From the IMG/VR virus record IMGVR_UViG_3300045988_082633: a DNA stretch of 64,000 nucleotides. One strand, written 5' to 3'. Shown here one piece after another: positions 6,081 to 56,635 of the stretch. Numbering within the stretch: the stretch's first letter is position 1; every line of letters begins with the position of its first letter. The position numbers were made by a program, and so were the translations under genes. Below the pieces are notes generated by a model. The model saw only the letters and a program-made list of their open reading frames with translations, made no database searches and was not told where the DNA came from. The DNA is from a virus.

Positions 6081-6091
6081 TTCTACGGGGG
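6081..6091 (-). repeat. GC-rich interspersed motif, copy 1 (CCCCCGTAGAA reads on the minus strand)
   Basis: Plus strand reads TTCTACGGGGGAGCGCA. Intergenic, 110 nt upstream of the start of 5284..5970 and on its coding strand. Overlaps an imperfect hairpin (6090-6100 / 6111-6121). Confidence 0.85.
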
Positions 6092-6241
6092 AGCGCATTA
6101 TCTAACTTTGTAATATGCTCCATAAAGCACAGAACCTAAGCTATTTTCGATTTAATATGCTTGACTGATGTCTCCATCATAAATCATATTTGAGTGTCTT
6201 AAATCGCTTGAAAATAATTATAATAATTTATCATTATTATC

Positions 6242-6559
6242 TTATTTAATTTTAGAATAATAACCAATATTAAATTTTTCACATATAGGTTTGAATATCC
6301 AAGACCAAGATACAGGAGCAAGAATAAAACTATTAAAAATTGTTTTACTATCACTTCCTGTAGCATAATAAATAACAGCAGTTATAATACTAATTACAAG
6401 AAATATAAGACGTTTATTACGAGTACTAATTTGACTTTTCTTTTTATAATCTGTATAAAGTTTAATAGCAAGATATGTTGCTATATTAACAATAATACAA
6501 AAAGGAAAATCAAAACTTTCTAATGTTTTGTTTACAACTTCTAAAATTATTGTCTCCAT
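6242..6559 (-). CDS. small membrane protein with holin-like topology
   Basis: 105 aa with three hydrophobic segments (FPFCIIVNIATYLAIKLY, LIFLVISIITAVIYYA, FILAPVSWSWIF) and a basic loop (KKKSQISTRNKR). The function is a guess from topology. Confidence 0.45.
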   Translation of the reverse strand: METIILEVVNKTLESFDFPFCIIVNIATYLAIKLYTDYKKKSQISTRNKRLIFLVISIITAVIYYATGSDSKTIFNSFILAPVSWSWIFKPICEKFNIGYYSKIK

Positions 6560-6691
6560 TATTATCTTTATTATTTGTTATATATGTTTTACTATCATCA
6601 GCAAATATATTAAAAATCCTCGAATTAACCAAATTTTTATGTATTTTTAACTTTTAGATTATATATAGAATCTTCATTATTATATAAAATA

Positions 6692-6725
6692 ATAGTAGTA
6701 GCAATTTCACAATTACTACTACTAT
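6692..6725 (-). terminator. hairpin terminator downstream of 6764..7186
   Basis: ATAGTAGTAGCAATT / AATTACTACTACTAT stem (one mismatch) with loop TCAC. On the minus strand it is followed by TTATTTTATATAAT. Confidence 0.55.
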
Positions 6726-6763
6726 ACTTAAAATTAACATCACAATTATAAACAATTAAACTT

Positions 6764-7186
6764 TTATATCATCATTTCCCAATCTATTACAATACCACTT
6801 CTACACATATCTGCATACCAACGATTAAATACAAGACCGTCATATCCATCTACGTCATCAATGACATCTTTAACATATAAACATAAATGTTGCTCGTCAG
6901 GTACACTACTACCAAGAAAATCAGCTTTACACATATTAGCTACATATACATAATCATAAAGTTGATTATTTTCAATTTCAACACGATATGCTTTAAGTAA
7001 AGAATCTATTTCTTCTTTTTCTAGTTTAACTAGATGAACTACACCCCCCGTAGAAGGGTTGTGAGCTTCCATTTTACTAATAGCAAAATCACATAGTTTT
7101 CTATTAAAATGCCTACCATTATAACGAAGATAATGTTTCATATCTTCAGGCATATCGTCATAAATATCTAAACTATCTCTTTTCAT
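6764..7186 (-). CDS. hypothetical protein (140 aa) in a terminator-bounded unit
   Basis: Intact ORF between hairpin terminators at 7205-7228 and 6692-6725. Contains motif copy 2 (encoding ...NPSTGGVV...). No family recognised. Confidence 0.55.
   Translation of the reverse strand: MKRDSLDIYDDMPEDMKHYLRYNGRHFNRKLCDFAISKMEAHNPSTGGVVHLVKLEKEEIDSLLKAYRVEIENNQLYDYVYVANMCKADFLGSSVPDEQHLCLYVKDVIDDVDGYDGLVFNRWYADMCRSGIVIDWEMMI
7045..7055 (+). repeat. GC-rich interspersed motif, copy 2
   Basis: Plus strand reads ACACCCCCCGTAGAAGGGTT. Lies inside 6764..7186, antisense to the gene, which reads TCT ACG GGG GGT = S-T-G-G. Confidence 0.85.
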
Positions 7187-7204
7187 ATTATTAGAAATTA
7201 AAAA

Positions 7205-7228
7205 GGAGAGAAGAATATTCCTCTCTCC
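7205..7228 (-). terminator. rho-independent-type terminator after 7246..7494
   Basis: GGAGAGAAG / CCTCTCTCC stem with loop AATATT. On the minus strand it is followed by TTTTTAATTTCT. Confidence 0.65.
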
Positions 7229-13097: not shown

Positions 13098-16000
13098 TTA
13101 TGAATTTATAAGATTATATATTTTATCAATTCCAAAGGTTGCTGCTCCATAATTATTAGAACCAGTTATAGAAATTTCTCTAACTTCATCCATACTTTGA
13201 GCATTTATTTCTTTAATATTTGGTTTATTAGTAAGAGTAATCTTTGTAAGATTTGCAGGAAGATTTACAATTTTAAGATTATCTGTAGATGGTAAAATAA
13301 ACTCTTCAATTTTATTGTCATTACGAGCTTCAAGTACTTCAAGTACAGGAAATACTGTAAGATCAATAGTACCATTAAGATTAGTTAATCCTGCAATGTT
13401 AAGTTTTTTACAACAGCCAAATACAAGTCCTTTAGTATTAAGATCTACAAGATTTGGATTATTATAATCATATTTATTTCCGTTTGCATCTTCTACTTGT
13501 TCATATCTTCCAATATTAATTTCTTCAAGATTTACAAGAGTTCCCCAACCAGTATAAATAGAACTTATATACCAATGTGAAAGGTCATTAATAGTCTTAA
13601 TATTTTTACAGCCTCTAATACCAATACGAAAATCTCCACCACTTTCATTTACAATATTATCAGCATTTGTTTTAAGCGTTACTTTCTGACTAACTCTATT
13701 AACTATAATATTTCCTTCAACTACATCATTTACTTCAATAAAAGCTTTATCATGAAGCGTGTTACCTATAGTAAGATAAGAGTATGTTCTTTCATAAGCA
13801 GTAAGCTCAATAGCCCATCGTTTTGTACCATTAGGACCTGTATGCCAATATTTATTTCCTGCATCAGGTATATTAGCAAAACCACTAACATTAAATTGAA
13901 CATTATCTGTAGTAAAGTCACTAGACGCTCCACCAAATACGTAATTCTCTCCACCTTTAAAATAACAACGATTTTTTACAAACCATTCATTATGTTCTTT
14001 AGCAGAACCATGAGCTTTCTGATAATCTGAACTAATACTTGTATATGAATATTCAGAGTTAGCATTATATATCATTGCATTGTATAAGTCAACTTGATTA
14101 TCGTGCATATATTTTAGCATACCTTCAGAAGTTAAAATACCACCAGCAAATAAATGGTTGTAAATAGTTTTTATTTCTTCTGAAAATACTTCAAATATAA
14201 GTGCCCAAAAATCAGGTCCTCTACCTTCATGTTTACCATCATAAAGTCCATCAGTATAAAGAACATTATAAAGGAATTTAAAGAAGTTATCATTATCACA
14301 ACCAAGACCAGAGTCAAAATCATAACCAAGAAGTCTAAGAAGTTTTTGACGTTTACCATAATAATCAGTTATAATATCTTGCTCCCCCGTAAAGAAGGAG
14401 AAAAATTGATTTTTAGTATCTTGGTCACATAGTAGATGATTATCCATGATAACAGCATTAAATAAAATTTGATTAAGAACAACATAATATTTAAGTTCTT
14501 GATAAAATTTACTTTTTCTATTTGCAAGATTATCAACTACTTCTGCTCCATTGATTGAAAGTTTATTGTTATAATTTGAATCGTGTTGACCATTAAGTGC
14601 TTGATCTCCTATGTTATAAGGAGAACAATTATATGTAAAATCAAACAATCTTTGAATTGGACCAGTAGTTTCAAGTCCTATATTAGAAGCATCTCTATTT
14701 GCAGGAATTATATCACCACATACTGCATCTATATCTGGATATCTATATTCAAGATGTGACAATCCGGCACTACCATCACCTTTCCAAACACCTCCATTAC
14801 TAATATCATAAGTATGAAAATTACAAATAGGAGAAGCATTATCTCGCCATTCAACAGAGAAAGTTTCATCTTTTTCATCATCATGCCATGTTCTAGTACC
14901 ATCAGGATTAACAGTCCAATAACCTCCAAAACCAAATACTTTCATATTAGTTTTATCTGTAATAAGGTCGAATTGTCCAGAAAAAGCAGTAATAGCAGCA
15001 TTAGATGTTGGATCACGAAGAATACTTTGACTATCTGTACGTTTCATTTCAAATGCTATAGATGGAACACCGTCAACACATTGACGAGTTTTAACCATAG
15101 CTATTTGTTCAGTACGAGTTAAATTAGGAAAATTTTCAATAACAGAAGCAAGTTCTTTACGTTGTGGTGGAGTTAAACAATCTTCATAAACATAAACACC
15201 TTGAACTTGAACAGATGCTAAATATCTAGCACCATCTTCATACATTTTAGCTGTAGGTAAATTTCTAGCTTGAGTAGATTCATTAGGATTCTTTTTCATT
15301 GTAAGAAGATAACAAGGTAAAGAATCTTTATCAGGAATAAAAAATACATTAGCATTTTTACCATATTCTGTATATTCAGCTGAAAAGGTTTGAGAAAGAT
15401 CATCAAACCAATGAAGTTTAATAGTTCCTCTAACATCCCAACGAACATTACCTTTAGTAGAGTCTTTAGTAGACGTTCCTTGACGTCTTGCTCTAAGAGA
15501 ACCAGGAGTGGCACCTTCAAGCCAATATGTATTTTTGGAATCTATAATACCTTTACCTTGTTCATTTACAGTAAATGAGAATTTATACCAATCCTGTCTA
15601 TCTGTAGTATTAGTAGCTTTAGTAGAACCTTGATATCCACCTTCAGGAATATTATTTCCAACAAGACTTACATTATTGCAAAAATCTGTTGCAACAACTA
15701 CAGAAAAAGGTACAGGTCCTCTTTTTTGTTCTGCAAGATATTTACCATAAGCAATAGCTTGTTTTAGAGTTATAACAGGTTGACCTGTTCCATCAAGTTC
15801 ATAAAAATTATTCTTGTTATACAAAGCAGACATTTCTCCAGCATCGTCTAAGTCCATTGTACGAGTCTGAAGAATATCAAAAGCATTTGTATAAGAATCA
15901 TAATATCTAAAATCAAACAAGTCAAGTGCAGCTCCATCTCCACCAAATACTATTTCTGTACGATTTGCTAAAAGTTGACTAAGAGTCTGATTAGGAATAA

Positions 16001-17645
16001 TACCAAAACCTGCAATTTCACCATTTATATAATATCTGGCTTCATGTTTTGTTGCAGCACCATCTTGATAATATGGTTGAACTGTAATAGTTAAATCAAT
16101 TCTAGTATTAGCACTAAACCTACGAGAATTATGACTAGTAGCACTTTGTATTTCATCTGGACGACTAAGAAGATTAGCACCTACTCCAATATAAATACTG
16201 TCCCCTGTTACATAAAATCCAACACCATCTGAATCAGAATAGCAGTCTATAATTCTTTTATTAGCATCACTAACACCTGTCACTCTAAATGACATTTTAA
16301 TAGTAAAACCAGTTGAAAGAATACCACCACCTACACTATTTGCGACAAATTGAGTTGCATTATAAAAAGGATAGAAATTTTTAATTCTAGCACGAGCAGT
16401 TCCAACAAGATGAAGATGATTTTCATCTCTCCAACCTGTATTATTATCAAATTGAACATTATTAAATTCTACTTGATAACCATTGTTAGTCCATATATTT
16501 TTATCTGCGTCATTGTTTGTTCTATTTTGTGCTGTAAGATAAATTACAGGATTTTCTTTAGCAACCCATGTAATATTACTAGCAGTTGCTTCAAAAATAA
16601 TATCTACAGAATTTCTAATACGAGGTTCTCCTTGTGGATTTGTAGAAATACTTCCATCTTCATCTAAAAAAGGAACGCCAATTTGAATTTGATTAGAAGT
16701 ACTAGGAACAAGATATTTCCAAGTGTTACGAGAACGATTGGAAATACTACGCTCACCTTTTTTAACATATTTACGAGTAGTAGAATCCCATTCACGAAGA
16801 AGAACAATTAAATTATCTGTATCAGAAAGAGCAGGATCAAATGCAGAAAATACAATATTATAATAATCTTTTTCTACTGCACCTTTAATCTCTTCATAAG
16901 TAATATAGACATCATCTGCTTGTGCTCCAACAGTTGTAAAAATACTAGTTGTCAAAGTTTCTGATTTAGTTTCACCATCTTCAAGAAGCAAATATGCTTT
17001 GACAATATGAGCACCAGCAGTCAAAGCAGGAACTGTTACAGTTGCTGCACCGGCAGTGTTAAGAGTATTAGTTACAGTTTGAGAACTATTTTCATCAACA
17101 CTACCTGTTGCTCCAAAGAATTGAACAATAAGTTGAGCACTAGAACCTGTAAATTGTGCTTGAAATTTAAGAACACGAGGATCTACAGTGTTAATTTGGT
17201 TATCAGTACTAAGTGTTGCAGACTGACGAGTATATTTAATACGTTTAACAGCCGAAGACAAGCCGTCACTTGTATAAGCTCTAATCTTTATAGTAATAAC
17301 ATCATTACCAATTTGAGCTAAATAAGGAGCTAAATTCGGAGTTTCGAGTTCATCATCTGCACTATTTGACTTAACATCTGTTAAAGTAATAACACTATTA
17401 CCGATAGTTATTTCTACAGTAAAATCAGGATTATAAGTTCCATCAACAGTACTATTAACTTTATAAAAGAAAGTAACTTTTTCAGCTGTAGCAACAAAAG
17501 TTCTATTAAGAGAACCTACAATACTAACTGCAATTTGACTATAATTACCTCCTTGTAGCATAGCTATAGTACTCTTTAAAGCACTCTCTACTTCAGCATG
17601 AGAATGACCTTCCCAAGAATCAAAAATATTTTCTATTTCAGCCAT
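13098..17645 (-). CDS. very large tail protein with a LamG/ConA-like segment and C-terminal leucine-rich repeats
   Basis: 1515 aa. FTIKMSFRVTGVSDANKRIIDCYSDSDGVGFYVTGDSIYIGVG...RYYINGEIAGF looks LamG-like. The C-terminus has LxxLxLxxN-type repeats (LNIAGLTNLNGTIDLTVFPVLEVLEARNDNKIEEFILPSTDNLKIVNLPANLTKITLTNKPNIKEI). Confidence 0.6.
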   Translation of the reverse strand: MAEIENIFDSWEGHSHAEVESALKSTIAMLQGGNYSQIAVSIVGSLNRTFVATAEKVTFFYKVNSTVDGTYNPDFTVEITIGNSVITLTDVKSNSADDELETPNLAPYLAQIGNDVITIKIRAYTSDGLSSAVKRIKYTRQSATLSTDNQINTVDPRVLKFQAQFTGSSAQLIVQFFGATGSVDENSSQTVTNTLNTAGAATVTVPALTAGAHIVKAYLLLEDGETKSETLTTSIFTTVGAQADDVYITYEEIKGAVEKDYYNIVFSAFDPALSDTDNLIVLLREWDSTTRKYVKKGERSISNRSRNTWKYLVPSTSNQIQIGVPFLDEDGSISTNPQGEPRIRNSVDIIFEATASNITWVAKENPVIYLTAQNRTNNDADKNIWTNNGYQVEFNNVQFDNNTGWRDENHLHLVGTARARIKNFYPFYNATQFVANSVGGGILSTGFTIKMSFRVTGVSDANKRIIDCYSDSDGVGFYVTGDSIYIGVGANLLSRPDEIQSATSHNSRRFSANTRIDLTITVQPYYQDGAATKHEARYYINGEIAGFGIIPNQTLSQLLANRTEIVFGGDGAALDLFDFRYYDSYTNAFDILQTRTMDLDDAGEMSALYNKNNFYELDGTGQPVITLKQAIAYGKYLAEQKRGPVPFSVVVATDFCNNVSLVGNNIPEGGYQGSTKATNTTDRQDWYKFSFTVNEQGKGIIDSKNTYWLEGATPGSLRARRQGTSTKDSTKGNVRWDVRGTIKLHWFDDLSQTFSAEYTEYGKNANVFFIPDKDSLPCYLLTMKKNPNESTQARNLPTAKMYEDGARYLASVQVQGVYVYEDCLTPPQRKELASVIENFPNLTRTEQIAMVKTRQCVDGVPSIAFEMKRTDSQSILRDPTSNAAITAFSGQFDLITDKTNMKVFGFGGYWTVNPDGTRTWHDDEKDETFSVEWRDNASPICNFHTYDISNGGVWKGDGSAGLSHLEYRYPDIDAVCGDIIPANRDASNIGLETTGPIQRLFDFTYNCSPYNIGDQALNGQHDSNYNNKLSINGAEVVDNLANRKSKFYQELKYYVVLNQILFNAVIMDNHLLCDQDTKNQFFSFFTGEQDIITDYYGKRQKLLRLLGYDFDSGLGCDNDNFFKFLYNVLYTDGLYDGKHEGRGPDFWALIFEVFSEEIKTIYNHLFAGGILTSEGMLKYMHDNQVDLYNAMIYNANSEYSYTSISSDYQKAHGSAKEHNEWFVKNRCYFKGGENYVFGGASSDFTTDNVQFNVSGFANIPDAGNKYWHTGPNGTKRWAIELTAYERTYSYLTIGNTLHDKAFIEVNDVVEGNIIVNRVSQKVTLKTNADNIVNESGGDFRIGIRGCKNIKTINDLSHWYISSIYTGWGTLVNLEEINIGRYEQVEDANGNKYDYNNPNLVDLNTKGLVFGCCKKLNIAGLTNLNGTIDLTVFPVLEVLEARNDNKIEEFILPSTDNLKIVNLPANLTKITLTNKPNIKEINAQSMDEVREISITGSNNYGAATFGIDKIYNLINS
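14384..14398 (+). repeat. GC-rich interspersed motif, variant copy 3 (CCCCCGTAAAGAAGG)
   Basis: Plus strand reads GCTCCCCCGTAAAGAAGGAG, with one extra A relative to the core. Inside the 1515-aa gene, antisense; the gene reads TTT ACG GGG GAG = F-T-G-E. Confidence 0.6.
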
Positions 17646-24534: not shown

Positions 24535-25866
24535 TTAAAGAATTATATCATCCATGTTTGTCTTACCATCTTGTTTTTTAACAAGTTTAACAGTTTTAGT
24601 AGAACGATTTTGTTTAGATTTGACAATAAGTTTACGAACTTCGTTTTCCTTAACTGCCATATCAATCAAATCTTTATAAGTTCCTCCTGTAAACATAAGC
24701 CAAGCATCGAGCATTTCACGAGCCATATATTCATCATCAGTAAGTTCAGCTAAATCTCTCTGATACCCTGTAATCTTACTACCATCTTCTTTTTCTACTG
24801 AAGCATTAGAAATATAATTAAAGAAATCATTAGGAGTAATAACTACTTTTTTACCATTAATTTCTTTTGTAAAACTATCAGGAATTTTATAACCGTTAAT
24901 AACACGTCCATTAATCATATTATTAACTTTTTCCCAATATGCTTTAAGATCTTCTGCTTCTTGTTGACGTTGAGCAGCAGCTTGTGTTTCAATATCTTTA
25001 CGATATGCTTTATCTTTATCAACAAGAGCTGCAAGTTGAGTTTTAGCCTCATCATAAAGACTTCCGCTATCTCGAAGATATTTAATATAGTTATCATTAA
25101 GACTCTTATTACCGAACTCAGCAGCAGCCATCTTAATTACAGCAACAAGTTGACTTTCATTATCTTTATCTAATGTAATTCCACTACGATCTGGAATATC
25201 ACCAAAACCTTTAGGAGTACCTTTAAGCTGTACATAGTCTTGGAATTGTTTAAGAAGAGGATTATCTTGATAAAGACGATTGATTGCTGCTTGTTGAAGT
25301 TCATTAGAACGAAGATTTATAACAGAATCAATATAAGATTTAACTCCATTTGCATCTTCTGTAAACTCAATAGGAGTTCCATTTTCATCGTTTATCGTAA
25401 TACCTACTGCTTCTTGAATAGAAGAAAGACTGAGTGGTTCGTTATCACTACTATCGTTAATATCAACTGTTTTAAGCCACTCAGCTACATCTGCTGCTGC
25501 TTTAAAAACATTTCCTTCAGCATCAACAACGTCTCCATTTTCAGAAACAGTATAAGTAACACCATCAACCTCAATTTGATCTCCAACATTTAGCTCCCCC
25601 GTAGAAGCGTCGCCATTACCATTGTTGTTGTCATTGCCATTGTTGTTACCATCTTTATTGTTATTACTATCTGTAGTAGGATCATTAATATCTACTGTAT
25701 CATTACCATTAAGATGAGTAACATCATCTTGATTATTTTGAGCACCACCATTATTGTTGTTATCGGTGTTAGTATTTTGACTACCTGCTCCTTCAAAATC
25801 AATGTCTGTAACTGCCATAATTTTATTACTATTTTTAGGATTATTATTAGAATATCTAATCATCAC
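24535..25866 (-). CDS. head-module protein with an N/D/G-rich disordered N-terminus and coiled-coil regions (scaffold-like)
   Basis: 443 aa between portal and capsid genes, with a long low-complexity N-terminus (NNNNGGAQNNQDD..., NNNKDGNNNGNDNNNGNGD). The true start may be the internal MAVTDIDF at about 25818. Contains motif copy 4. Confidence 0.5.
   Translation of the reverse strand: MMIRYSNNNPKNSNKIMAVTDIDFEGAGSQNTNTDNNNNGGAQNNQDDVTHLNGNDTVDINDPTTDSNNNKDGNNNGNDNNNGNGDASTGELNVGDQIEVDGVTYTVSENGDVVDAEGNVFKAAADVAEWLKTVDINDSSDNEPLSLSSIQEAVGITINDENGTPIEFTEDANGVKSYIDSVINLRSNELQQAAINRLYQDNPLLKQFQDYVQLKGTPKGFGDIPDRSGITLDKDNESQLVAVIKMAAAEFGNKSLNDNYIKYLRDSGSLYDEAKTQLAALVDKDKAYRKDIETQAAAQRQQEAEDLKAYWEKVNNMINGRVINGYKIPDSFTKEINGKKVVITPNDFFNYISNASVEKEDGSKITGYQRDLAELTDDEYMAREMLDAWLMFTGGTYKDLIDMAVKENEVRKLIVKSKQNRSTKTVKLVKKQDGKTNMDDIIL
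25596..25606 (+). repeat. GC-rich interspersed motif, copy 4
   Basis: Plus strand reads AGCTCCCCCGTAGAAGCGTC. Inside 24535..25866, antisense; the gene reads TCT ACG GGG GAG = S-T-G-E. Confidence 0.85.
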
Positions 25867-31339: not shown

Positions 31340-31729
31340 TTATTTCAGTAATAATAATAAAGTTACAATAGATAATACTATTCCTCCACCAATAGTAATG
31401 TTTCTTTGGTAAACAGCTTTTTTATAAGCTTTATTTAACAAAATATTACTACTTTTATAATGTTGTATAACAATACTATCGTTTACTATAATACTTTTAA
31501 GACTTTTATTAATTTTCTTTTCATAATCAAGTTCTATAAGTTTACTATTTGCTAATCTTAAATCATTATAAGAAATAAGAACTGAATCTTTAACAATAGT
31601 ATCTTTAACAACCACACCCCCCGTAGAAGAGTTTGTACAGGTTAAGTGTGTATTATTTGCCAATAAGGTGATAGAACAATTTAAGAGTACTATCATTGTC
31701 AAGGCTTTTAATTTCAATAGATTTAACAT
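31340..31729 (-). CDS. envelope protein with N-terminal signal/lipobox-like LLNC and a C-terminal TM segment (u-spanin-like topology)
   Basis: 129 aa. N-terminus MLNLLKLKALTMIVLLNCS, C-terminus GGGIVLSIVTLLLLLK. Its start lies 77 nt inside the upstream ORF in another frame. Contains motif copy 5. Confidence 0.4.
   Translation of the reverse strand: MLNLLKLKALTMIVLLNCSITLLANNTHLTCTNSSTGGVVVKDTIVKDSVLISYNDLRLANSKLIELDYEKKINKSLKSIIVNDSIVIQHYKSSNILLNKAYKKAVYQRNITIGGGIVLSIVTLLLLLK
31618..31628 (+). repeat. GC-rich interspersed motif, copy 5
   Basis: Plus strand reads ACACCCCCCGTAGAAGAGTT. Inside 31340..31729, antisense; the gene reads TCT ACG GGG GGT = S-T-G-G. Forms an inverted pair with copy 6. 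Confidence 0.85.
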
Positions 31730-31940
31730 TTTTAATACTATCTAAATGTTTAACTTCTATAATTAGTTTATTGTTATCTTTAGTAATAGAGTCTATTTTG
31801 AGTTCTTCTACGGGGGAGGTAGTTGATGTGCTCTTTAAAGTTAACTGTTTTACTATCGATATTAATACGATAAACAATGGTATAATTACCATTATAATTA
31901 TTTTTATAACAAGTAAGTTATTTATCTTTTTGCATTTCAT
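31653..31940 (-). CDS. small type-II membrane protein (holin or i-spanin-like)
   Basis: 95 aa with the N-terminal hydrophobic segment LLVIKIIIMVIIPLFIVLISIV and then a polar domain. Overlaps both neighbours. Contains motif copy 6. Confidence 0.45.
   Translation of the reverse strand: MKCKKINNLLVIKIIIMVIIPLFIVLISIVKQLTLKSTSTTSPVEELKIDSITKDNNKLIIEVKHLDSIKNVKSIEIKSLDNDSTLKLFYHLIGK
31806..31816 (-). repeat. GC-rich interspersed motif, copy 6 (reads on the minus strand)
   Basis: Plus strand reads CTTCTACGGGGGAGGTAGTTG. Sense orientation within 31653..31940 (TCC CCC GTA GAA GAA = S-P-V-E-E) and 76 nt upstream of the start of 31340..31729. Confidence 0.85.
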
Positions 31941-40631: not shown

Positions 40632-40642
40632 ATGATAATCTT

Positions 40643-40873: not shown

Positions 40874-40892
40874 CTTATTAAATATTTTAATT

Positions 40893-41279: not shown

Positions 41280-41310
41280 AGGCTTTGTGGTTTGCCTGTA
41301 TTTAAATCCC

Positions 41311-41349: not shown

Positions 41350-41380
41350 CTAATAATATTGTTAATTTAATATTTGAAAA

Positions 41381-41525
41381 TTGAAAAATATGTGGATAAC
41401 AATATATAATAATATGTCATATTTGCCACCAATTTTCGCTTGTGTTGGACTTTATATAAGGCAATGATAGTTTATAAGCACCCCCGTAGAAGCGTGTCTT
41501 AAATAGTTTAAAAATAAATACAATA
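41381..41525 (+). repeat. repeated intergenic element, copy A
   Basis: Core GCCACCAATTTTCGCTTGTGTTGG (41425-41448), then CTTTATAT, AAGGCAA, TCTTAAATAG and AAAAATAAATACAAT, collinear with copy B. Lies between a terminator and gene 41556 and carries GC-motif copy 7. Confidence 0.6.
41481..41491 (+). repeat. GC-rich interspersed motif, copy 7
   Basis: Plus strand reads AGCACCCCCGTAGAAGCGTG. Intergenic, on the coding strand 64 nt upstream of the ATG at 41556. Confidence 0.85.
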
Positions 41526-41555
41526 TTTCGTAGTTATATAAATAATAATACAATT

Positions 41556-41867
41556 ATGAATGCAAAAGAAGAATTATTACATATAATAACTGCTAGAAAT
41601 CTTACTATTCTTAAAATAGATATAGTATATGAACCTATGGATTATGATACCTCTTGTGGTGAATATAAGACATATACTAAAGGTATAACATCTTTTAATG
41701 ATCTTGATTTTTGTTATGATAATGGCTATGGTACTCAAGAATTATTTGGTGTTGTATATTGTAAAGATTCTAACAATAAACCTGTTTGGCTTACAAGAGA
41801 AGAATATGATGGTAGTGAATGGTGGAATATAAATACTATTCCAAAATTTTATGATACTATTAAATAA
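41556..41867 (+). CDS. hypothetical protein
   Basis: 103-aa ORF. No motif recognised. Confidence 0.55.
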   Translation: MNAKEELLHIITARNLTILKIDIVYEPMDYDTSCGEYKTYTKGITSFNDLDFCYDNGYGTQELFGVVYCKDSNNKPVWLTREEYDGSEWWNINTIPKFYDTIK

Positions 41868-42005
41868 AATAATAAAGAAAACTTAAAAATAACTTTCCAA
41901 GTTGTTGAGGACAGCTATGGTTATCCTTGTATTCTTTATAAATATAAGGTTTTAGCTGTAAAACACATAATTTTTAGTGTTTAATTTAATTTTATTATTA
42001 ACTTT

Positions 42006-44742: not shown

Positions 44743-45303
44743 ATGAGTATATGTAATGATTGTCCTATACGTCTTTTTAATAATAAGCATTATAATCTAC
44801 AAGGAATTGGCAATCCTTATTTTGGTAATTGTATTGTAGTTCCTAATGTAGATTATAATGCTTATAAAAAAGGTAGTATGGGATTTAGTAATCAAGTAGA
44901 GATAATTAAAGAAACTCTACACCTTTCTACGGGGGGTGTCGATGAACTAGATGGTTTTTATATAGTTCCTCTAATTCGTTGTAATGAAAGTATTTCTTGT
45001 GAATTAGATAATAATTCTTATAATAGATGTTTACAACATTTTGCTAATGATATTTGTAAATATAATTTTAAGAATATTCTACTTCTTGGAGATGCTGGAA
45101 GAAGATTTCTTAATTGTGATATATCTGATAATTTAAATAATCTCATAATATCATCTAATAATAGGTTTTATAATATAAATTATTCTCCTCTTATAAAATA
45201 TGTAAATGAAGAGAAATTTGCTATATTTGAAACTTATTTAAGAAAATGGTATTCTTGTTGTATTGCTCGAAATTTTAATACTTATAATATAATAAAAGTA
45301 TGA
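44743..45303 (+). CDS. uracil-DNA glycosylase-fold protein (family-4-like, divergent motifs)
   Basis: 186 aa. N-terminal CNDCPIRL...GIGNPYFGNCIVVPNV, FYIVPLIRCN and ILLLGDAGRRFL are collinear with family-4 UDGs as I recall them. It lies just upstream of the DNA polymerase (one 76-aa ORF between), as I recall for crAss-like phages. Contains motif copy 8. Confidence 0.5.
   Translation: MSICNDCPIRLFNNKHYNLQGIGNPYFGNCIVVPNVDYNAYKKGSMGFSNQVEIIKETLHLSTGGVDELDGFYIVPLIRCNESISCELDNNSYNRCLQHFANDICKYNFKNILLLGDAGRRFLNCDISDNLNNLIISSNNRFYNINYSPLIKYVNEEKFAIFETYLRKWYSCCIARNFNTYNIIKV
44925..44935 (-). repeat. GC-rich interspersed motif, copy 8 (reads on the minus strand)
   Basis: Plus strand reads CTTTCTACGGGGGGTGTCGATG. 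Inside the UDG-like gene, antisense orientation; the gene reads TCT ACG GGG GGT = S-T-G-G. Confidence 0.85.
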
Positions 45304-48885: not shown

Positions 48886-50301
48886 ATGACAAATCCTGGT
48901 GAAATATTTGAAAATGCTATCAATCATTGGAGAGATGAAAAAGGTATTGGCACTGCTATTATACCTTCTCCTCTTAATGATAAATTGATGGTACTAGGAG
49001 TTCTTCAGCGTATATATGCTCGTTCTCCTACTGTAAATTCTGTTATAATTACTAATTCTTTTAGTGAAAGACAAAGTATTACAGAGTTTTTAACTCAACA
49101 AGAAGATGTAGAAGAAAATAATGAAGAATTTAAGAATCTTATAACTTCTGGTAAAATTAAAGTTTTTACTGATAAATTTATTAAAAGTTGTAAAGTTCAA
49201 ACTTATCCTTTTTTATGTATTTGGTACAGACCTGATGGTGCTTGTGAAGAAATATTAGATTATGTTAGTAAATGCAAGTTTAAACTTGTTGTTTTAAATA
49301 AGTTTTTATCTAACTATGATGATGTTCTCAAATTATATCAAGTAGCTCCTCTTCTCAAAGATTTCCAACAAGCAGAAATAGAAGCTATTCGATTGAGCAC
49401 CCCCGTAGAAGAAATACAAATAGGTGTAGATATTCCTACTGATAGTAACGTATATGAACTTTTAAAATATTATGATGAGTATATTGCTACAAGTCTAAAT
49501 ATATTTGGAAGTTTTGATATTATGCAACAAGCTAATGTAGGAAATCAACAATTAAATATATCTTCTACTCAAATATGTTATCAAATAGCACAAGAAAATG
49601 GTTGGAACGAACATCTTGATATGAATATTGAGTTTAATCTTGAAATTGATAGACTTTACAATCCTAATAATCTTAAAGAACGAGTATCAAAAACTTATGA
49701 GATAATTAGAGAACGTAGTAAACTTCTATCTGATTTTGAAGGAAAACTTGATATTATTCTCAATATAGTTCGTGAAAACAAAGATAAGAAAATTCTTATT
49801 ATCAATAAACGTGGTGATTTTGCAAGTAAAGTTACAGATTTTCTTAATGATTTATCTGATACTATTATTTGTGGAAATTATCATGATAAAGTTGATAATA
49901 TTCCTGCTGTTACTTTTACAGGACAACCTGTATATTATAAAAGTGGAGCAAGAAAAGGTGAGCGTAAAATGATGGGTGTTAAAGCACAAAAAACACTTAA
50001 TGTAGAAAGATTTAATAATGATTTTATTCATGTTCTTTCTACTAATAACTCACCAGATAAAGATTTGGCTATAGATGTTGATGTTGTGATTATAACGTCT
50101 CCAATGTGTGAAGATATTAAAGCTTATATGTATAGACTATCTAAAATATATTTTAGGTCTAAACTTATAAAATTATACTCTTTATATTGTCTGAATACAA
50201 GCGAACAAAAGATGATAGAGAAAAAAGCACTATCCGATAACCATAATGTTAAAAATTCTATTGCTGATGAAAATTATTCTGCTTTTATTGTTGATGATTA
50301 A
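48886..50301 (+). CDS. SF2-helicase-like protein (C-terminal RecA-like domain recognisable, N-terminal motifs degenerate)
   Basis: 471 aa. KILIINKRGDFASKVTDFLN...HVLSTNNSPDKDLAIDVDVVIITSP resembles the helicase C-terminal domain pattern. No canonical Walker A seen. Contains motif copy 9. Confidence 0.3.
   Translation: MTNPGEIFENAINHWRDEKGIGTAIIPSPLNDKLMVLGVLQRIYARSPTVNSVIITNSFSERQSITEFLTQQEDVEENNEEFKNLITSGKIKVFTDKFIKSCKVQTYPFLCIWYRPDGACEEILDYVSKCKFKLVVLNKFLSNYDDVLKLYQVAPLLKDFQQAEIEAIRLSTPVEEIQIGVDIPTDSNVYELLKYYDEYIATSLNIFGSFDIMQQANVGNQQLNISSTQICYQIAQENGWNEHLDMNIEFNLEIDRLYNPNNLKERVSKTYEIIRERSKLLSDFEGKLDIILNIVRENKDKKILIINKRGDFASKVTDFLNDLSDTIICGNYHDKVDNIPAVTFTGQPVYYKSGARKGERKMMGVKAQKTLNVERFNNDFIHVLSTNNSPDKDLAIDVDVVIITSPMCEDIKAYMYRLSKIYFRSKLIKLYSLYCLNTSEQKMIEKKALSDNHNVKNSIADENYSAFIVDD
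49400..49410 (+). repeat. GC-rich interspersed motif, copy 9
   Basis: Plus strand reads AGCACCCCCGTAGAAGAAAT. Sense orientation in 48886..50301 (ACC CCC GTA GAA GAA = T-P-V-E-E). Confidence 0.85.
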
Positions 50302-53332: not shown

Positions 53333-54547
53333 ATGATTCGTAATATAAATACTGCAAAACTTACTAAAACATATATTGAGGAAAAAATATCTCAAGAACT
53401 TATTGTTAGTAAATATCTTGATATTCCAATAGAAGTCGTTAAACATTGTATTGATAATAATACTTTGATAACTTCTGTGTTTAGAGATGATGATAACAAT
53501 GGTAGTATGGGTATTCAATATAATGCTAAAGGCCGACTTAAAGTACGGGACTTTGGAGGTTTTGGCTTTTTCGGTGATGTTTATGATGTAGTTGGTTATG
53601 TATTATCTCTTATATGTAAAAGAAAAATCGAACCTAATAATAAACAAGATTTTTATTTTATATTGAAACATATAGCTAATACTTTTAGTAATATAATTGA
53701 TGGAAAAGAAGTCGATGAAAATATTACTTATGAAATAAAAGATGCTATATCTGTAGGTAAGCAACGTAGACCTATAATAGAGATTGTTCCTCGTAGTTGG
53801 AATAAATCTGATAAAGACTATTGGGGGAAACTTGGAGTTTCTCTTAGTTATCTTAATACACATTTTGTAATTCCTGTAGATCAATATTATATTGATAGAG
53901 GTGTTAATACAGAACCAAAATATTATTATAAACAAAAAGATCCATGTTATGCTTATATGTTTGGTCAAAATAGACAAGGAATACATTTTATTAAACTGTA
54001 TTTTCCTAATCGTAATAGAGCTACTGAATTAAAATTTATAACTAATTGTAATGTTCTTGAAGGTTTACTTAATCTTGAACTTAATAATTATGATTTTATT
54101 CTTATTACAAAAAGTAGCAAAGACAGACTTAGTATAGGTGGACATTTAGATACGATACCTTTCTACGGGGGAGCTAATGCTAAACTAAATATTGGTATTA
54201 TAAATCTTCCTAGTGAAAATTATCATCTTACTGAAAAAGAATATTCTTGGCTTACAAATAAACTTGCACCAAATGGTAAAATTATAAGTCTATTAGATTT
54301 TGATTATACTGGTAGATGTGGTGCTAATTATTTGTATGAAACTTATAACATACCATATATGTTTATAACTCGTGGTGAATTTGGTCTTCCTAATTATCAT
54401 TGTAAAGATTTTACAGATTTGCATGATATATATACAATTAAAGAAATAAATCAATTTATTAACGAAACTATAAAATATGTCACACTCAGATTTAAATGTG
54501 GTTATGAAACCACTTCCGACTTGTCAGAATTACCGTATTTTATGTAG
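53333..54547 (+). CDS. DNA primase (Toprim-type)
   Basis: 404 aa. FILITKSSKDRLSIGG and LLDFDYTGRCGANYL fit the Toprim pattern (DxD). The N-terminal SVFRDDDNNGSMGI...VRDFGGFGFFGDVYDVV is collinear with the primase zinc-binding/RNA-polymerase N-terminus but lacks the Cys ligands. Contains motif copy 10. Confidence 0.55.
   Translation: MIRNINTAKLTKTYIEEKISQELIVSKYLDIPIEVVKHCIDNNTLITSVFRDDDNNGSMGIQYNAKGRLKVRDFGGFGFFGDVYDVVGYVLSLICKRKIEPNNKQDFYFILKHIANTFSNIIDGKEVDENITYEIKDAISVGKQRRPIIEIVPRSWNKSDKDYWGKLGVSLSYLNTHFVIPVDQYYIDRGVNTEPKYYYKQKDPCYAYMFGQNRQGIHFIKLYFPNRNRATELKFITNCNVLEGLLNLELNNYDFILITKSSKDRLSIGGHLDTIPFYGGANAKLNIGIINLPSENYHLTEKEYSWLTNKLAPNGKIISLLDFDYTGRCGANYLYETYNIPYMFITRGEFGLPNYHCKDFTDLHDIYTIKEINQFINETIKYVTLRFKCGYETTSDLSELPYFM
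54161..54171 (-). repeat. GC-rich interspersed motif, copy 10 (reads on the minus strand)
   Basis: Plus strand reads CCTTTCTACGGGGGAGCTAATG. Inside the primase gene, antisense, in a different frame (TTC TAC GGG GGA = F-Y-G-G). Confidence 0.85.
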
Positions 54548-54947
54548 TAACATAACTTGTGGTATTGTCAGAAGAACAGTTATGATTCCTATTAGTGAAC
54601 AAGAAGAAAAAACTATAGATAATATAGGAGATTCTATTCTTAAATTTCAACGTGGTAATAAATCTTTTTCTATAAAAATGAAAGATATTTATTGTTATGG
54701 AGAAGTTGATTTTACTAATGAAGAAGATCTTGATCAAATTGATTCTTTTAATTTCCTTGATTATCTTGGTGGTATTGGTATTCATATTTGGTCTCATTAT
54801 GATTATAAAACTCATAGTTGTAAAACTTTTAATAAACAAATTTTATGGACTGAAACTTGGAGTCCAGCTATAGTTGCACAAATAGCTCATGGATGCCTTG
54901 GAAAGCCTCAACGTATATTACTTTTTAACGAATATATAAGAAAATGA
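54477..54947 (+). CDS. hypothetical protein
   Basis: 156-aa ORF overlapping the primase 3' end. The true start may be a later Met (54504 or about 54582). 4-nt overlap with the ligase gene. Confidence 0.5.
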   Translation: MSHSDLNVVMKPLPTCQNYRILCSNITCGIVRRTVMIPISEQEEKTIDNIGDSILKFQRGNKSFSIKMKDIYCYGEVDFTNEEDLDQIDSFNFLDYLGGIGIHIWSHYDYKTHSCKTFNKQILWTETWSPAIVAQIAHGCLGKPQRILLFNEYIRK

Positions 54948-56167
54948 AAACATTATATAAAAGAAATGCTCAAGGTAAACCTCTATTTTGGAGTATTTGG
55001 GTTGATGATACTTCTATTAACTCTAAAATTATTAATGTCAAATATGGTCTTGTTGGTAAAGATGGTAGATTTGAACAAATTACAACTACTAGAAAAGTAC
55101 AAGATGAAATTGAATCTTTAATAAAAGCTAAACGTAAAGAAGGATATAAAGAGTTAGTAGATTTATACGATAATGCTCATATAGCAGAACAAGATGTTTC
55201 TAAAATAGATTTAGTTTATTATCTTAATACATATCTTCCTAAGTTTAACACACATGATAATGGTGCTTTTATACCAATGTTATGTAAAACACTCGAAGAT
55301 AATAGACCTTTTGAAAGAGGTAATTATTTTGGACAATGGAAGATTAACGGTGAAAGATGTATTATTACTGCTGGTAAAACTACTGGTTTATTTGAAGAAA
55401 TAAAACTTCATTATCGTAGTAGAGAAGGAATTGATTGGACAAATAAACTTAGTTATTTAGACGATTTTCTTCTTCCTTGTATTCCTGAAGAAATTATAGA
55501 TATGATGCTTGAAGAAGGAGTAGGACTTGATGGAGAATTATATCTTCCAGGTTATGGAATTAATGAAATTAATTCTTTTATTAAAAATACTGAACTTCCT
55601 CAACATTATAAACTACAATTTTGGATGTATGATTTATGTATAGAAAATATGTCTGCTTATAATAGACAAATAATTCTTACTGAAAATTTTAAAAAATATA
55701 TTCCATTAAATCTTAAAACAAAAGAAGATCATTTAAATAATAGAAATAATTTAATTCTTCTCCCAAATGAAGATACAATTGATATTTCTAATGCTATAAA
55801 ACAAAGAGATTATTATATTTCTCTTGGATTTGAAGGTTTAGTTATTCGTGAAAAATCTGCTGAATATCAATTTGGTGGTAGACGTAATAATAGTATGCTT
55901 AAATTTAAAAAGAAAGAAGATGGATTGTTTGAAATTATAGATATTATTCCAGAAGGACATAAACGTACTAATCTTGGAAAATTTGTTCTAAAGAATGATA
56001 TTAACGATGAATTGTTTGAATGTAGTTATAACGCAACTCATGAAAAACAAGAAGAAATTCTTGTTAATAAAAACAATTATATAGGTAAAAATGCGTTAGT
56101 TGAATATCGAGAAAGAAGTGGTATTAAACAATGTCCTTTTCATGCTCGTGTAATTAGTATTAAATAA
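54944..56167 (+). CDS. ATP-dependent DNA ligase
   Basis: Nucleotidyl-transferase motifs appear in order: I WKINGER (KxDGxR type), III LDGELY, IIIa FWMYDL, IV EGLVIRE, V MLKFKKK. Confidence 0.85.
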   Translation: MKTLYKRNAQGKPLFWSIWVDDTSINSKIINVKYGLVGKDGRFEQITTTRKVQDEIESLIKAKRKEGYKELVDLYDNAHIAEQDVSKIDLVYYLNTYLPKFNTHDNGAFIPMLCKTLEDNRPFERGNYFGQWKINGERCIITAGKTTGLFEEIKLHYRSREGIDWTNKLSYLDDFLLPCIPEEIIDMMLEEGVGLDGELYLPGYGINEINSFIKNTELPQHYKLQFWMYDLCIENMSAYNRQIILTENFKKYIPLNLKTKEDHLNNRNNLILLPNEDTIDISNAIKQRDYYISLGFEGLVIREKSAEYQFGGRRNNSMLKFKKKEDGLFEIIDIIPEGHKRTNLGKFVLKNDINDELFECSYNATHEKQEEILVNKNNYIGKNALVEYRERSGIKQCPFHARVISIK

Positions 56168-56214
56168 AATGCTAAACATAAATTTAAATTTTTCTTTAAA
56201 AAATTATAAAACTG

Positions 56215-56571
56215 ATGAATCTTAATGCTTATGATAGTATAATAGAAAAACTTGATAAAAACAAGACTTGGATTGATATTCGTAAAAAAACTATTCTAAG
56301 TAGAGAAATGAAGTATAGAAAATATACTTGTATTCTTAAACGTTATGACTCTAAAACTAATCTTAATTCACATTTTATTGCATTACTTGATAATCCTCCT
56401 GAAAATAGATTATATAAATCTACTGTACAAGATGATTATGGTAGAATTAAAATAAATATTTCTAGTATATGGAATGAAACATATTTGTTTAATCTTAAAA
56501 GTGATTGTAATATTTTGTGTACTTTGATAGAAAGTGGAGATGACGGTGATATTTATTCTATTGATGTTTAA
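56215..56571 (+). CDS. hypothetical protein
   Basis: 118-aa ORF followed by a strong terminator. Confidence 0.55.
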   Translation: MNLNAYDSIIEKLDKNKTWIDIRKKTILSREMKYRKYTCILKRYDSKTNLNSHFIALLDNPPENRLYKSTVQDDYGRIKINISSIWNETYLFNLKSDCNILCTLIESGDDGDIYSIDV

Positions 56572-56577
56572 CATGTG

Positions 56578-56617
56578 ATAGTTCTTAGTAGTCTTATTGA
56601 CTCTAAGAACTATTTTT
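56578..56617 (+). terminator. rho-independent-type terminator
   Basis: Perfect 11-bp stem ATAGTTCTTAG / CTAAGAACTAT with a 14-nt loop. The last stem T begins a T5 run (TTTTTATT). Confidence 0.75.
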
Positions 56618-56624
56618 ATTAGCT

Positions 56625-56635
56625 CCCCCGTAGAA
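56625..56635 (+). repeat. GC-rich interspersed motif, copy 11
   Basis: Plus strand reads AGCTCCCCCGTAGAATGGTA. Lies immediately after terminator 56578-56617, and its last A is the A of the ATG at 56635. Confidence 0.85.

Follow-up and report, generated by a model that had tools for sequence, protein, structure and literature searches.

A dispersed GC-rich signal in crAss-like phages of the family Intestiviridae, with the DNA machinery of the phage itself as its most likely reader

The single-strand initiation and primosome assembly signals of plasmids and small phages (RSF1010 ssiA and ssiB, the ColE1 pas sites and the G4 origin) act in cis, in an orientation-specific and gene-independent manner, and serve a priming protein specific to the plasmid or phage; they occur on both strands, and in many cases two inverted copies enclose an AT-rich origin. 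These are structured hairpins of 40-140 nt, present once or twice per replicon, whereas the motif of crAss-like phages described here has no structure, spans ~20 bp and recurs at regular intervals, with 15-30 copies. Cluster A mycobacteriophage stoperators (L5 gp71) are asymmetric 13-bp sites with 20-35 genome-wide copies and subcluster-specific dialects that co-evolve with the repressor, but most of them occupy short gaps between genes and point in the direction of transcription, whereas the crAss sites are 67% coding, show an orientation unrelated to transcription and have a core conserved across genera and subfamilies. The C1 operators of phage P1 (an asymmetric consensus of ~17 bp, with more than 12 sites over a genome of ~94 kb) occur as monovalent and bivalent (inverted) sites, one of which controls the repL replicon; they overlap promoters, however, whereas crAss sites are mostly mid-gene, and we know of no description of strand-wise even spacing for P1.

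Promoters of single-subunit RNA polymerases (the T7 group) are likewise asymmetric words with almost no variation, in which dialect and polymerase co-evolve, and the yeast mitochondrial nonanucleotide ATATAAGTA, which occurs in either orientation within an AT-rich genome, additionally primes replication, but these are co-oriented with the genes or origins served, a bias that the crAss motif lacks. Chi and DNA uptake sequences are over-represented orientation-specific words on both strands, tolerated within genes and conserved in position among relatives; they are 5-12 nt long, read by the host and abundant in its chromosome, whereas the crAss signal is specific to a phage lineage, with no host enrichment visible among the matches listed. 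Yeast mitochondrial GC clusters and Rickettsia palindromic elements are GC-rich islands in AT-rich DNA, possibly intragenic, but are mobile, palindromic and indel-polymorphic, none of which applies to the crAss motif. No published description of the genome-wide signal was found.

The window, a stretch of 64,000 nucleotides of viral DNA (28.4% G+C), belongs to a crAss-like phage of the Obtuvirinae, family Intestiviridae. All ten exact copies of the 11-bp word CCCCCGTAGAA reported in the initial annotation were recovered at their positions and on their strands, together with one variant at 14384:

6081..6091, minus strand: exact copy, intergenic, sense, between minus-strand ORFs 5284-5970 and 6242-6559
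7045..7055, plus strand: exact copy, antisense, in ORF 6764-7186 (minus strand; phrog_38431, function unknown)
14384..14394, plus strand: variant CCCCCGTAAAG in the 1515-aa ORF 13098-17645 (minus strand)
25596..25606, plus strand: exact copy in ORF 24535-25866 (minus strand), the gene directly upstream of the major capsid gene
31618..31628, plus strand: exact copy, antisense, in ORF 31340-31729 (minus strand), upstream of the large terminase gene
31806..31816, minus strand: exact copy, sense, in ORF 31653-31940 (minus strand)
41481..41491, plus strand: exact copy, intergenic, sense, 65 nt before the ATG of ORF 41556-41867
44925..44935, minus strand: exact copy, antisense, in ORF 44743-45303 (plus strand)
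49400..49410, plus strand: exact copy, sense, in the SNF2-type ATPase gene 48886-50301 (plus strand)
54161..54171, minus strand: exact copy, antisense, in the DnaG-type primase gene 53333-54547 (plus strand)
56625..56635, plus strand: exact copy, intergenic, sense, with a terminator upstream and ORF 56635-57081 downstream

The excess that had been estimated for the word was confirmed, with 10 exact copies against 0 matches in 100 dinucleotide-preserving shuffles; CCCCCGTAGAA was the most over-represented word in the window and in two related genomes, and a one-mismatch scan of the window yielded no extra copy. Runs of at least 5 C or G were as closely tied to the motif as claimed (11 of 14), the others being the three that had already been named (36528, ~36557-36558 and 53823). 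The first two of these had been taken for degenerate relatives of the motif, a view that found no support, as the extended consensus was unmatched at both; structure and an Rfam match were looked for in their region and neither was found. An asymmetric signal of ~20-24 bp, with at least 16 informative positions, has CCCCCGTAGAA as its invariant core; its consensus in the window phage is A-S-C-H-CCCCCGTAGAA-R-R-G..(W)TGTGA. No intrinsic hairpin or fold of the motif, and no Rfam or tRNA match to it, was found. The flank groups described as subfamilies were present (AGCT three times, ACAC three times and AGCA twice), but they do not represent lines of descent, since the flanks of a site and of its orthologs in relatives differ.

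The motif was shared between the window phage and related Crassvirales, with 12-13 copies of the same 11-mer in relatives from other genera, mostly at orthologous positions; we regard the signal as ancient in the family Intestiviridae. In MH552500, the sites at 6081, 41481 and 56625 have orthologs at 70673, 39280 and 22571 respectively, the last with its ATG 3 nt after the motif. The 7045 site is present in MH552500 (69721) and decayed to ACTCCTGTAGAAGAA in cr271_1; that at 44925, in an ORF orthologous to the annotated uracil-DNA glycosylase of the relatives, is found in both (33880 and 86389, respectively); that at 54161 is a GTAGAG variant in cr271_1 (78005) and decayed (CG to TG) in MH552500; and that at 49400 has orthologs in both, and a dialect form in prototypical crAssphage at 11765. 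The GTAAAG variant of 14384, without which the plus-strand series would have an 18.5-kb gap, also occurs in cr271_1 (31906, 55548) and is the norm in crAss002. In the close relative L122, the sites at 31618 and 31806 are both gone, the former via a single C-to-T change at the CpG and the latter through one CpG transition.

The site at 25596 is placed where a low-complexity linker meets the conserved domain (TCT TCT ACG GGG GAG CTA, encoding S-S-T-G-E-L); of 80 related loci, most have kept it, at capsid identities as low as 75%. At this locus, L192 carries the motif in flipped orientation, ~12 nt off within the same linker, and in L182 the old site has decayed and a new-dialect site is present 600 bp away; the position of a site thus seems to matter more than its orientation. 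The dialects differ between lineages, being AGCT-CCCCCGTAGAA-G in Obtuvirinae, RAGCCGCCCTGTARAAGG in the L182 lineage (with positions unchanged) and, among other Intestiviridae, GAGACCCCCCGTAGAGGA in cr110_1 (26 sites), (C)CCCCGTRGAGGATGGA in prototypical crAssphage (31 sites) and TTCCCCC(G/A)TA(A/G)AGGAG in crAss002 (28 sites). CrAssphage and the window carry SNF2 and primase sites in the same genes, the former on the same invariant P-V-E-E.

The peptides encoded by the motif were as initially read: five antisense copies read xxT ACG GGG (S-T-G; TCT ACG GGG at 7045), one reads TTC TAC GGG GGA (F-Y-G-G, in the primase gene at 54161), and two sense copies read xCC CCC GTA GAA (T/S-P-V-E; ACC CCC GTA GAA in the SNF2 ATPase at 49400). 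That conservation is at the nucleotide and not the protein level was borne out by the use of several frames and both orientations, by the intergenic copies and by recourse to the rarest codons, with CCC making up 0.5% of Pro codons, ACG 2.4% of Thr, GGG 1.8% of Gly and TAC 5% of Tyr. Synonymous positions in the flanks vary and the motif codons are fixed; when nine window site groups were compared with their orthologous counterparts in MH552500 and/or cr271_1, the core was 97% identical, against 54% for ungapped flanks. Purifying selection maintains the signal at its positions and is strong enough to prevail over codon usage; the signal works in cis, at the DNA level and genome-wide.

Coding sequence holds 67% of 103 sites, with 47 copies antisense and 22 sense, and intergenic sites are divided into 19 sense and 15 antisense; the layout is independent of gene boundaries and transcription direction. 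Spacing, by contrast with random expectation, was strongly strand-dependent. Pooled over six Intestiviridae sequences, no same-strand pair lay within 1 kb (16.5 expected; P = 7e-8), the closest same-strand sites being ~1.4 kb apart, whereas opposite-strand pairs within 300 bp occurred at about three times expectation (14 against 5.0; P = 6e-4), and 26/26 adjacent pairs within 1 kb were on opposite strands. As the genomes are related and share many orthologous sites, these statistics are not fully independent. Window examples are the divergent pair 6081 and 7045 (964 bp apart) and the convergent pair 31618 (left) and 31806 (right), 188 bp apart. Each strand carries approximately one site every 5-8 kb in crAss-like phages, prototypical crAssphage included, and same-strand spacing was far more even than random, as expressed by P(CV), the probability of a coefficient of variation of gap lengths no greater than that observed when sites are placed at random. 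The 18 sites on the crAssphage plus strand have gaps of 2.1-8.4 kb (P(CV) < 1e-5), and P(CV) was 1e-4 for the MH552500 minus strand, 9e-5 for the crAss002 minus strand and 0.001-0.003 for the window plus strand (gaps of 6.0-11.2 kb). Same-strand avoidance could partly come from selection against direct-repeat deletions, the phages encoding RecT-type annealing proteins.

We consider the motif to be a selected, orientation-specific cis signal with a co-evolving reader (probability about 0.85); the reader most likely belongs to the DNA machinery of the phage itself. It would be a phage-encoded protein whose specificity drifted along with its sites to give the lineage dialects, and reading would depend on orientation, with opposite-strand sites often side by side. 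The likeliest role of the sites would be to load or start a directional DNA machine that works over a limited range, which we infer to be the phage replication apparatus, through primase-helicase priming or origin-like initiation. The closest analogy would be the ssi/pas signals on both plasmid strands, and inverted pairs would be bidirectional starts if the sites prime replication. We hold this replication-priming reading only tentatively. Known DnaG-type primases recognise trinucleotides and not 20-mers, which counts against it. Known ssi and pas signals fold into hairpins and the motif has no fold of its own, an observation that also speaks against priming. Favouring a link to replication, AT-rich stretches of ~100 bp bracketed by convergent motif pairs lie directly upstream of each of the two RepL genes of crAssphage, and OriFinder placed an origin at one of these stretches (PMC10983915). 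The association with RepL is not general, as no RepL was detectable in Obtuvirinae, and no motif copy falls in the obvious candidate origin of the window, its longest AT-rich non-coding region (35540-36500).

Alternatively, a global DNA-binding protein of the phage, regulatory or architectural, might use the sites as scattered operators, much like mycobacteriophage stoperators or the C1 operators of P1, with ~15-30 bound sites silencing or organising the genome, for instance in a plasmid-like or carrier state, and with inverted pairs as bivalent sites. We regard this as somewhat less likely, although it would account for an asymmetric 17-24-bp site with many genome-wide copies in mono- and bivalent arrangements, for the enrichment of intergenic sites (33%, against an intergenic genome fraction of ~10% or less, a rough estimate from gene maps) and for lineage dialects, which fit repressor-operator co-evolution. 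The crAssphage pairs upstream of both RepL genes also have a parallel in phage P1, where Op53 controls the repL operon. Two thirds of the sites, however, are intragenic, far from promoters and conserved in position across subfamilies, and their orientation is unrelated to transcription, in which stoperators differ. Immunity specificities usually diverge fast and tolerate degeneracy, whereas this core is invariant within a genome (no one-mismatch copies) and conserved across genera; strict same-strand avoidance and even per-strand spacing are also unexpected for a binding protein blind to orientation. A P1-like phage-plasmid lifestyle has been proposed for crAssphage (PMC10983915), which counts in favour of operators.

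Less probable still is that the phage's own giant RNA polymerase uses the motif as a promoter or as a sequence-specific site of termination or pausing; antisense copies would then drive or stop non-coding or primer transcripts. All crAss-like phages encode this polymerase, and a long, asymmetric, near-invariant signal with slowly co-evolving dialects, as in T7-group promoters, with orientation-specific function and a spacing of about operon length, would suit it. The three intergenic copies of the window lie just past intrinsic terminators and before the next gene: a terminator (about 41311-41350) precedes the 41481 copy by 130 nt, and the 56625 copy lies between a terminator (hairpin ~56575-56613 and a T run) and the ATG of ORF 56635-57081, of which its last base is the A, so that the gap leaves no space for another promoter. 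The near-even intergenic division with and against genes and the intragenic position of two thirds of the sites nevertheless weaken the promoter or pause role proposed in the initial annotation, as do the mostly antisense coding copies, some conserved mid-gene in essential genes. Terminators in sense orientation within the SNF2 and RNA polymerase genes would cut the mRNAs of these genes short, and on the window ORF map coding sites showed no clustering immediately ahead of the following gene. For the virion RNA polymerase of phi14:2, a crAss-like phage, no promoter motif is known (bioRxiv 10.1101/2020.03.07.982082), which favours this explanation, but phi14:2 is without a comparable word.

Recognition by a site-specific nickase or DNA base-modifying enzyme, giving localised single-strand interruptions like those of T5 or phiKMV, or methylation of the central CpG, seems improbable. 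The very high specificity and invariant core would fit, and one-strand action would explain orientation-specific spacing. Decay and dialect change are concentrated at the CpG (CG to TG in L122, L145, L182, MH552500 26056 and cr271_1 30759; CG to CA in L130 and crAss002), as would fit a methylated C whose methyl forms part of recognition, but CpG transitions are the commonest mutations anyway. The nicking role is weakened by the enrichment of inverted opposite-strand copies 26-120 bp apart, since cuts at both would give double-strand breaks, and T5 and phiKMV nicks lie on one strand only. The annotations examined in relatives show no methyltransferase or dedicated nickase common to all carriers.

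Finally, a selfish or mobile insertion analogous to GC clusters, a host-read word (Chi or DNA uptake sequence) and an RNA structure are largely refuted and very improbable. The copy-and-diverge origin first suggested conflicts with the orthology of sites across genera and subfamilies; the SNF2 ATPase alignment shows no indel, with the motif on the invariant P-V-E-E, and sites were lost by single substitutions and not by excision, so the motif is not a mobile insertion. Identity breakpoints between close relatives fell elsewhere than the sites. Among the matches listed from 185,579 species genomes, there were scattered single matches and a few phage-like contigs and no multi-copy genome, which argues against a host-read word, and the informative positions far exceed any Chi site; the motif's lack of its own fold and of Rfam or tRNA matches counts against RNA structure. 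In favour of these explanations, the motif is GC-rich in an AT-rich genome and on both strands, a few tight convergent pairs make long palindromes, and in one case the motif supplies the 5' arm of a hairpin that follows the giant polymerase gene and in which MH552500 and cr271_1 differ by compensatory changes.

The GC-rich word CCCCCGTAGAA occurred in 10 copies in the 64-kb window, compared with 0 in 100 dinucleotide-preserving shuffles, ruling out a chance origin, and came first in every k-mer enrichment list, including one with a second-order Markov expectation. All 10 exact copies were found at the positions and on the strands given in the initial annotation, and its observation that runs of C or G mostly belong to the motif held for 11 of the 14 runs of at least 5 in this window of 28.4% G+C. 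Allowing one mismatch gave no additional copy in the window, indicating that the 11-mer is invariant within this genome; the eleventh site is a variant copy:

14384: eleventh site, sequence CCCCCGTAAAG

By aligning all copies, an extended, weaker consensus was seen, with A-S-C-H 5' of the core and, on its 3' side, R-R-G and then a faint (W)TGTGA (+14 to +19). Informative positions ran from -4 to about +19, which implies a footprint of ~20-24 bp that is not palindromic.

Megablast and tblastn placed the window in the Crassvirales, family Intestiviridae, subfamily Obtuvirinae, adjoining MH552500 (Wotdevirus murinus, mouse) and cr271_1 (Hacihdavirus, pig) with ~78-80% nucleotide identity in conserved genes. 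Structural genes take up its first 35.5 kb, on the minus strand, and replication genes the plus strand from 36.7 kb onwards. The exact 11-mer was present 13 times in MH552500 and 12 times in cr271_1, together with a few one-base variants, and most window sites had a positional orthologue in one or both of these genomes. Across nine orthologous groups anchored on the motif, core identity was 97% and flank identity 54%. Within the SNF2 ATPase gene, ACC CCC GTA GAA was unchanged in three genomes while adjacent codons varied at synonymous positions, and the codons that the motif uses are the rarest in the window (CCC 0.5% of Pro, ACG 2.4% of Thr, GGG 1.8% of Gly, TAC 5% of Tyr). Among 80 related loci fetched via the capsid protein, the S-S-T-G-E-L site, which precedes the capsid gene by 1.1 kb, was kept down to 75% capsid identity. 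As judged from these sequence comparisons, the motif is ancient and under selection at the DNA level.

In a five-genome alignment of the SNF2 ATPase protein the motif fell on an invariant P-V-E-E with no gap. In L122, a 91% identical relative, both copies of the convergent pair at 31618 (plus) and 31806 (minus) were gone, each via a single transition at the CpG and without deletion, and further decayed orthologues likewise showed substitutions. Spread by a copy-and-diverge mini-insertion, as initially proposed, does not fit orthologous sites that align without indels and copies that are lost by substitution. A mobile insertion resembling the yeast mitochondrial GC cluster or RPE was ruled out by the orthology and the lack of indels, palindrome or hairpin, those elements being palindromic or hairpin-forming and indel-polymorphic. 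The flank subfamilies described earlier are real in the window; they do not hold as lines of descent, as the orthologues in relatives carry other flanks, and they seem to reflect tolerated degeneracy. Site decay and dialect change clustered at the central CpG (CG to TG or CA) in the related loci L122, L130, L145 and L182, at MH552500 26056 and cr271_1 30759, and in crAss002, changes that would fit the deamination of methylated cytosine or the recognition of a 5-methyl group.

Other phages carried the word in lineage-specific forms.

Dialects of the motif in related phages
cr110_1 (Crudevirinae): GAGACCCCCCGTAGAGGA, 26 sites
Prototypical crAssphage, Carjivirus communis: (C)CCCCGT(A/G)GAGGATGGA, 31 sites
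crAss002 (Churivirinae, cultured): TTCCCCC(G/A)TA(A/G)AGGAG, 28 sites
L182 lineage (within Obtuvirinae relatives): RAGCCGCCCTGTARAAGG, at the usual positions, 4 sites in 21 kb
L145 lineage (related locus): CCCTGTAG, 4 sites in 21 kb

These dialects followed phage lineage, and the SNF2 and primase genes of crAssphage bore a site, as they do in the window. In the related locus L192 the motif was flipped and lay ~12 nt away from its usual place, and in L182 the old site was decaying with a new-dialect site 600 bp off. A site therefore appears to be required near a given position, with its exact place and sense being changeable. Because a shared core is combined with lineage-specific flanks at conserved positions, comparative sequence points to a trans-acting reader that would co-evolve with its sites. 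Universality across the order was rejected, as crAss001 carries a different word and phi14:2 was without a word of comparable strength. The first 100 kb of crAss001 (MH675552) had no CCCCGTR word and a both-strand word of its own, CTCCAGAAG, in 27 copies (about 2 expected), which has CTCC...AGAAG in common with the window motif; CTCCAG is the complement of the BpmI-type site CTGGAG. All 4 of its pairs under 1 kb were on opposite strands and its plus-strand spacing was regular (P = 4e-4), and it appears to fill the same part in crAss001.

With P values that are optimistic because some sites are orthologous between genomes, the sites were spaced more evenly than random points (MH552500 largest gap 8.6 kb, 17 kb expected, P about 3e-4; overall spacing similarly even in cr110_1 and crAssphage), a pattern that nonetheless recurs in three subfamilies. 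Splitting the sites by strand sharpened the evenness: on the crAssphage plus strand, 18 sites were separated by gaps of 2.1-8.4 kb, and 0 of 100,000 simulations were as regular. Random sites would be as evenly spaced with a probability of 1e-4 on the minus strand of MH552500 and of 9e-5 on that of crAss002, and the window's seven plus-strand sites lay 6.0-11.2 kb from one to the next (P = 0.001-0.003). All 26 adjacent pairs separated by less than 1 kb had one site on each strand. When six Intestiviridae sequences were pooled, no same-strand pair under 1 kb was seen against 16.5 expected (P = 7e-8), and opposite-strand pairs under 300 bp numbered 14 against 5.0 expected (P = 6e-4); the nine most closely spaced pairs (under 130 bp) included eight convergent ones. 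The spacing thus indicates orientation-specific reading for which one copy per strand per ~5-8 kb is enough, with the two orientations acting independently or cooperatively.

Relative to genes, 34 of 103 sites in five sequences (33%) were intergenic, a share above that of intergenic DNA in the genome, which we put by estimate from gene maps at ~10% or less, and 69 were in coding sequence. Intergenic sites were sense to genes in 19 cases and antisense in 15; coding sites were sense in 22 and antisense in 47, near the expected 2:3 because the sense word has TAG in one frame, and showed no concentration near gene ends. It is possible that the sites form a dispersed operator system, of the stoperator or P1 C1-like kind, since the word is non-palindromic with 10-31 copies per genome, and stoperators too are asymmetric sites present genome-wide in many copies, and the enrichment of inverted pairs here matches the mono- and bivalent (inverted) arrangements of P1 C1 operators. 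Stoperators are, however, mainly intergenic and oriented with transcription, unlike these mostly coding sites whose orientation is unrelated to it. P1 C1 operators overlap the promoters of regulated operons; of the present copies, some are placed between a terminator and the gene that follows, and most are mid-gene.

A promoter for the giant polymerase is also possible, as the word is long, near-invariant and asymmetric with lineage variants, and as the intergenic copies in the window are placed as follows:

All three intergenic window copies: each 3' of an intrinsic terminator and 5' of the next gene
56625: copy occupying the entire gap between terminator and ATG
41311-41350 and 56575-56613: strong intrinsic-terminator hairpins (about -20 kcal/mol, then a T run), directly upstream of an intergenic motif copy

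Taken alone, these three copies would suggest a promoter, but the family-wide orientation data do not: there is no upstream, co-oriented placement with transcribed genes, and the genes for UDG and primase, as well as the one upstream of the capsid gene, contain conserved antisense copies. A separate 11-bp hairpin directly follows the stop codon of the giant RNA polymerase in MH552500 (fetched locus L001, 12769-12815) and cr271_1 (fetched locus L004, 21209-21260; 66209). Its 5' arm consists of the motif's GTAGAA plus five more bases, with compensatory changes between the two genomes (GTAGAAAGGTT/AACCTTTCTAC in MH552500, GTAGAAGAGAT/ATCTCTTCTAC in cr271_1), and it looks like a terminator built on a motif copy. 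A modification or nick site is a further possibility, although interruptions of the T5 or phiKMV-like kind are confined to one strand and the sites here are on both strands in all genomes, with tight inverted pairs common.

Lying directly upstream of both RepL genes of crAssphage, convergent motif pairs flanked AT-rich segments of ~100 bp:

L318 28040-28220 (fetched crAssphage locus): RepL-upstream pair, bordered by GC-rich GCTACGC/GCGAAGC repeats
L319 45710-45900 (fetched crAssphage locus; crAssphage 95710-95900): RepL-upstream pair, bordered by the same repeats
Subtypes of these pairs: GTAG before gp43, GTGG before gp88

One of these pairs coincides with the origin predicted in crAssphage by Schmidtke et al. 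(PMC10983915). From the layout of the motif we infer that a directional replication machine may use the sites for loading or priming, because they are gene-independent, strand-specific, spaced on both strands and found as inverted pairs at putative origins; such a signal would harm neither sense nor antisense expression. The ssi/pas sites resemble them in being orientation-specific on both strands and gene-independent, with the inverted pairs lying by putative crAssphage origins, and differ in forming a stable single-strand hairpin for primase or PriA, the motif here being unfolded. Caution over replication is warranted, since the word is long and forms no hairpin and since the AT-rich stretch at 35.5-36.5 kb has no motif copy. 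More broadly, we give a probability of about 0.3 to the reading that, across the Intestiviridae including the prototypical crAssphage, the sites make up a co-evolving, orientation-specific 'ruler' of ~1 signal per 5 kb per strand for a process undescribed in any phage. Such a ruler could mark many sites across the genome at which the giant RNAi-type polymerase or a sequence-specific primase starts primers or RNA on both strands, or could serve for the polar loading of a tracking enzyme.

Both strands of five dialects had no intrinsic fold (minimum free energy 0 to -2.9 kcal/mol, z -1.3 to +1.3, none significant); a stem with a UACG-type loop had looked possible on one strand with G-T wobbles, but folding gave nothing beyond shuffles. 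Covariation at -1/+12 was negative by eye, and Rfam (gathering score) and tRNA searches of the whole window gave zero matches. The C/G runs at 36528 and 36557, once taken for degenerate relatives of the motif, were tried as part of a non-coding RNA and gave no structure signal (z = +0.6). Polarity by replichore or module was rejected, both orientations being interleaved throughout. A role as recombination hotspots or module boundaries was rejected too: the identity profiles of two 91% identical relatives were flat, with no breakpoints at sites, where dips in identity only reflect variable linkers. RepL was dismissed as the reader, being present in crAssphage and cr110_1 and undetectable in the window, MH552500 and cr271_1, and the candidate readers among the small early proteins had no informative Pfam or PHROG match.

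A scan of one genome per bacterial or archaeal species gave, among the matches listed, chance-level scattered single hits and no multi-copy host genome, the two-hit stretches being only phage-like contigs binned with Bacilli/Coprovivens MAGs. A short word read by the host, such as Chi or DNA uptake sequences of 5-12 nt, was rejected, as the footprint (-4 to about +19) is longer and the dialects track phage lineage. Four contigs of 19-94 kb in Bacilli / Candidatus Coprovivens MAGs (L198, L208, L216, L272) had two motif copies within 8 kb and are probably Obtuvirinae-like phage contigs; either low-GC DNA was mis-binned or the placement hints at a host outside the Bacteroidales.

The crAss-like phages are the most abundant human gut viruses, and the motif touches on their replication, transcription control and persistence; to our knowledge, their giant polymerase and replisome have no defined cis-acting signal. 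Full-text literature searches, both with motif strings and for reports of promoters or motifs in crAss phages, yielded no relevant match; their coverage was incomplete, making 'undescribed' provisional. A study of phi14:2 transcription is reported to have seen no upstream motif shared by early transcripts (bioRxiv 10.1101/2020.03.07.982082), and the crAssphage lifestyle paper makes no mention of the word (PMC10983915). A genome-wide cis signal is of a known kind in phages; the coding-embedded, position-conserved and strand-wise spaced form is, provisionally, not. This ~20-bp signal under extreme purifying selection, whose positions are conserved between mouse and pig phages and the prototypical human crAssphage, offers a concrete handle: it can serve as bait for the reader protein, be mutated in cultured phages (crAss002, C. 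communis) and be sought in long-read and RNA-end datasets that already exist. Protein-coding sequence can carry a genome-wide DNA code on top, at the cost of the rarest codons, and the strand-wise over-dispersion test could expose similar hidden signals in other phages.

Several other repeats were seen in the window. Where the two gene modules diverge, 35540-36500 is a 1.1-kb non-coding, extremely AT-rich stretch with (TATAT)n-like repeats, nested inverted repeats and no motif copy, likely an origin or early control region. From 36337 to 41876, AT-rich boxes ending in (AC)TATTAAATAT recur upstream of several small early ORFs and are possibly early promoters, distinct from the GC-rich motif:

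36421-36455, 37418-37444, 38614-38649, 39807-39850, 40851-40895 and 41851-41876: examples of AT-rich boxes

The word CCTCGTAAAG had five copies (4516, 29817, 30711, 36282, 59059) against 0.04 expected by base composition, had no link to the motif and, at a guess, reflects P-R-K codons. Four copies of CTCAAAAAAGCAAGA lie at the start of the early region (36571, 36609, 37267, 37292), and a 135-nt direct repeat (37609-37743 and 37800-37934), with 71% identity between its copies, recurs 191 bp apart.
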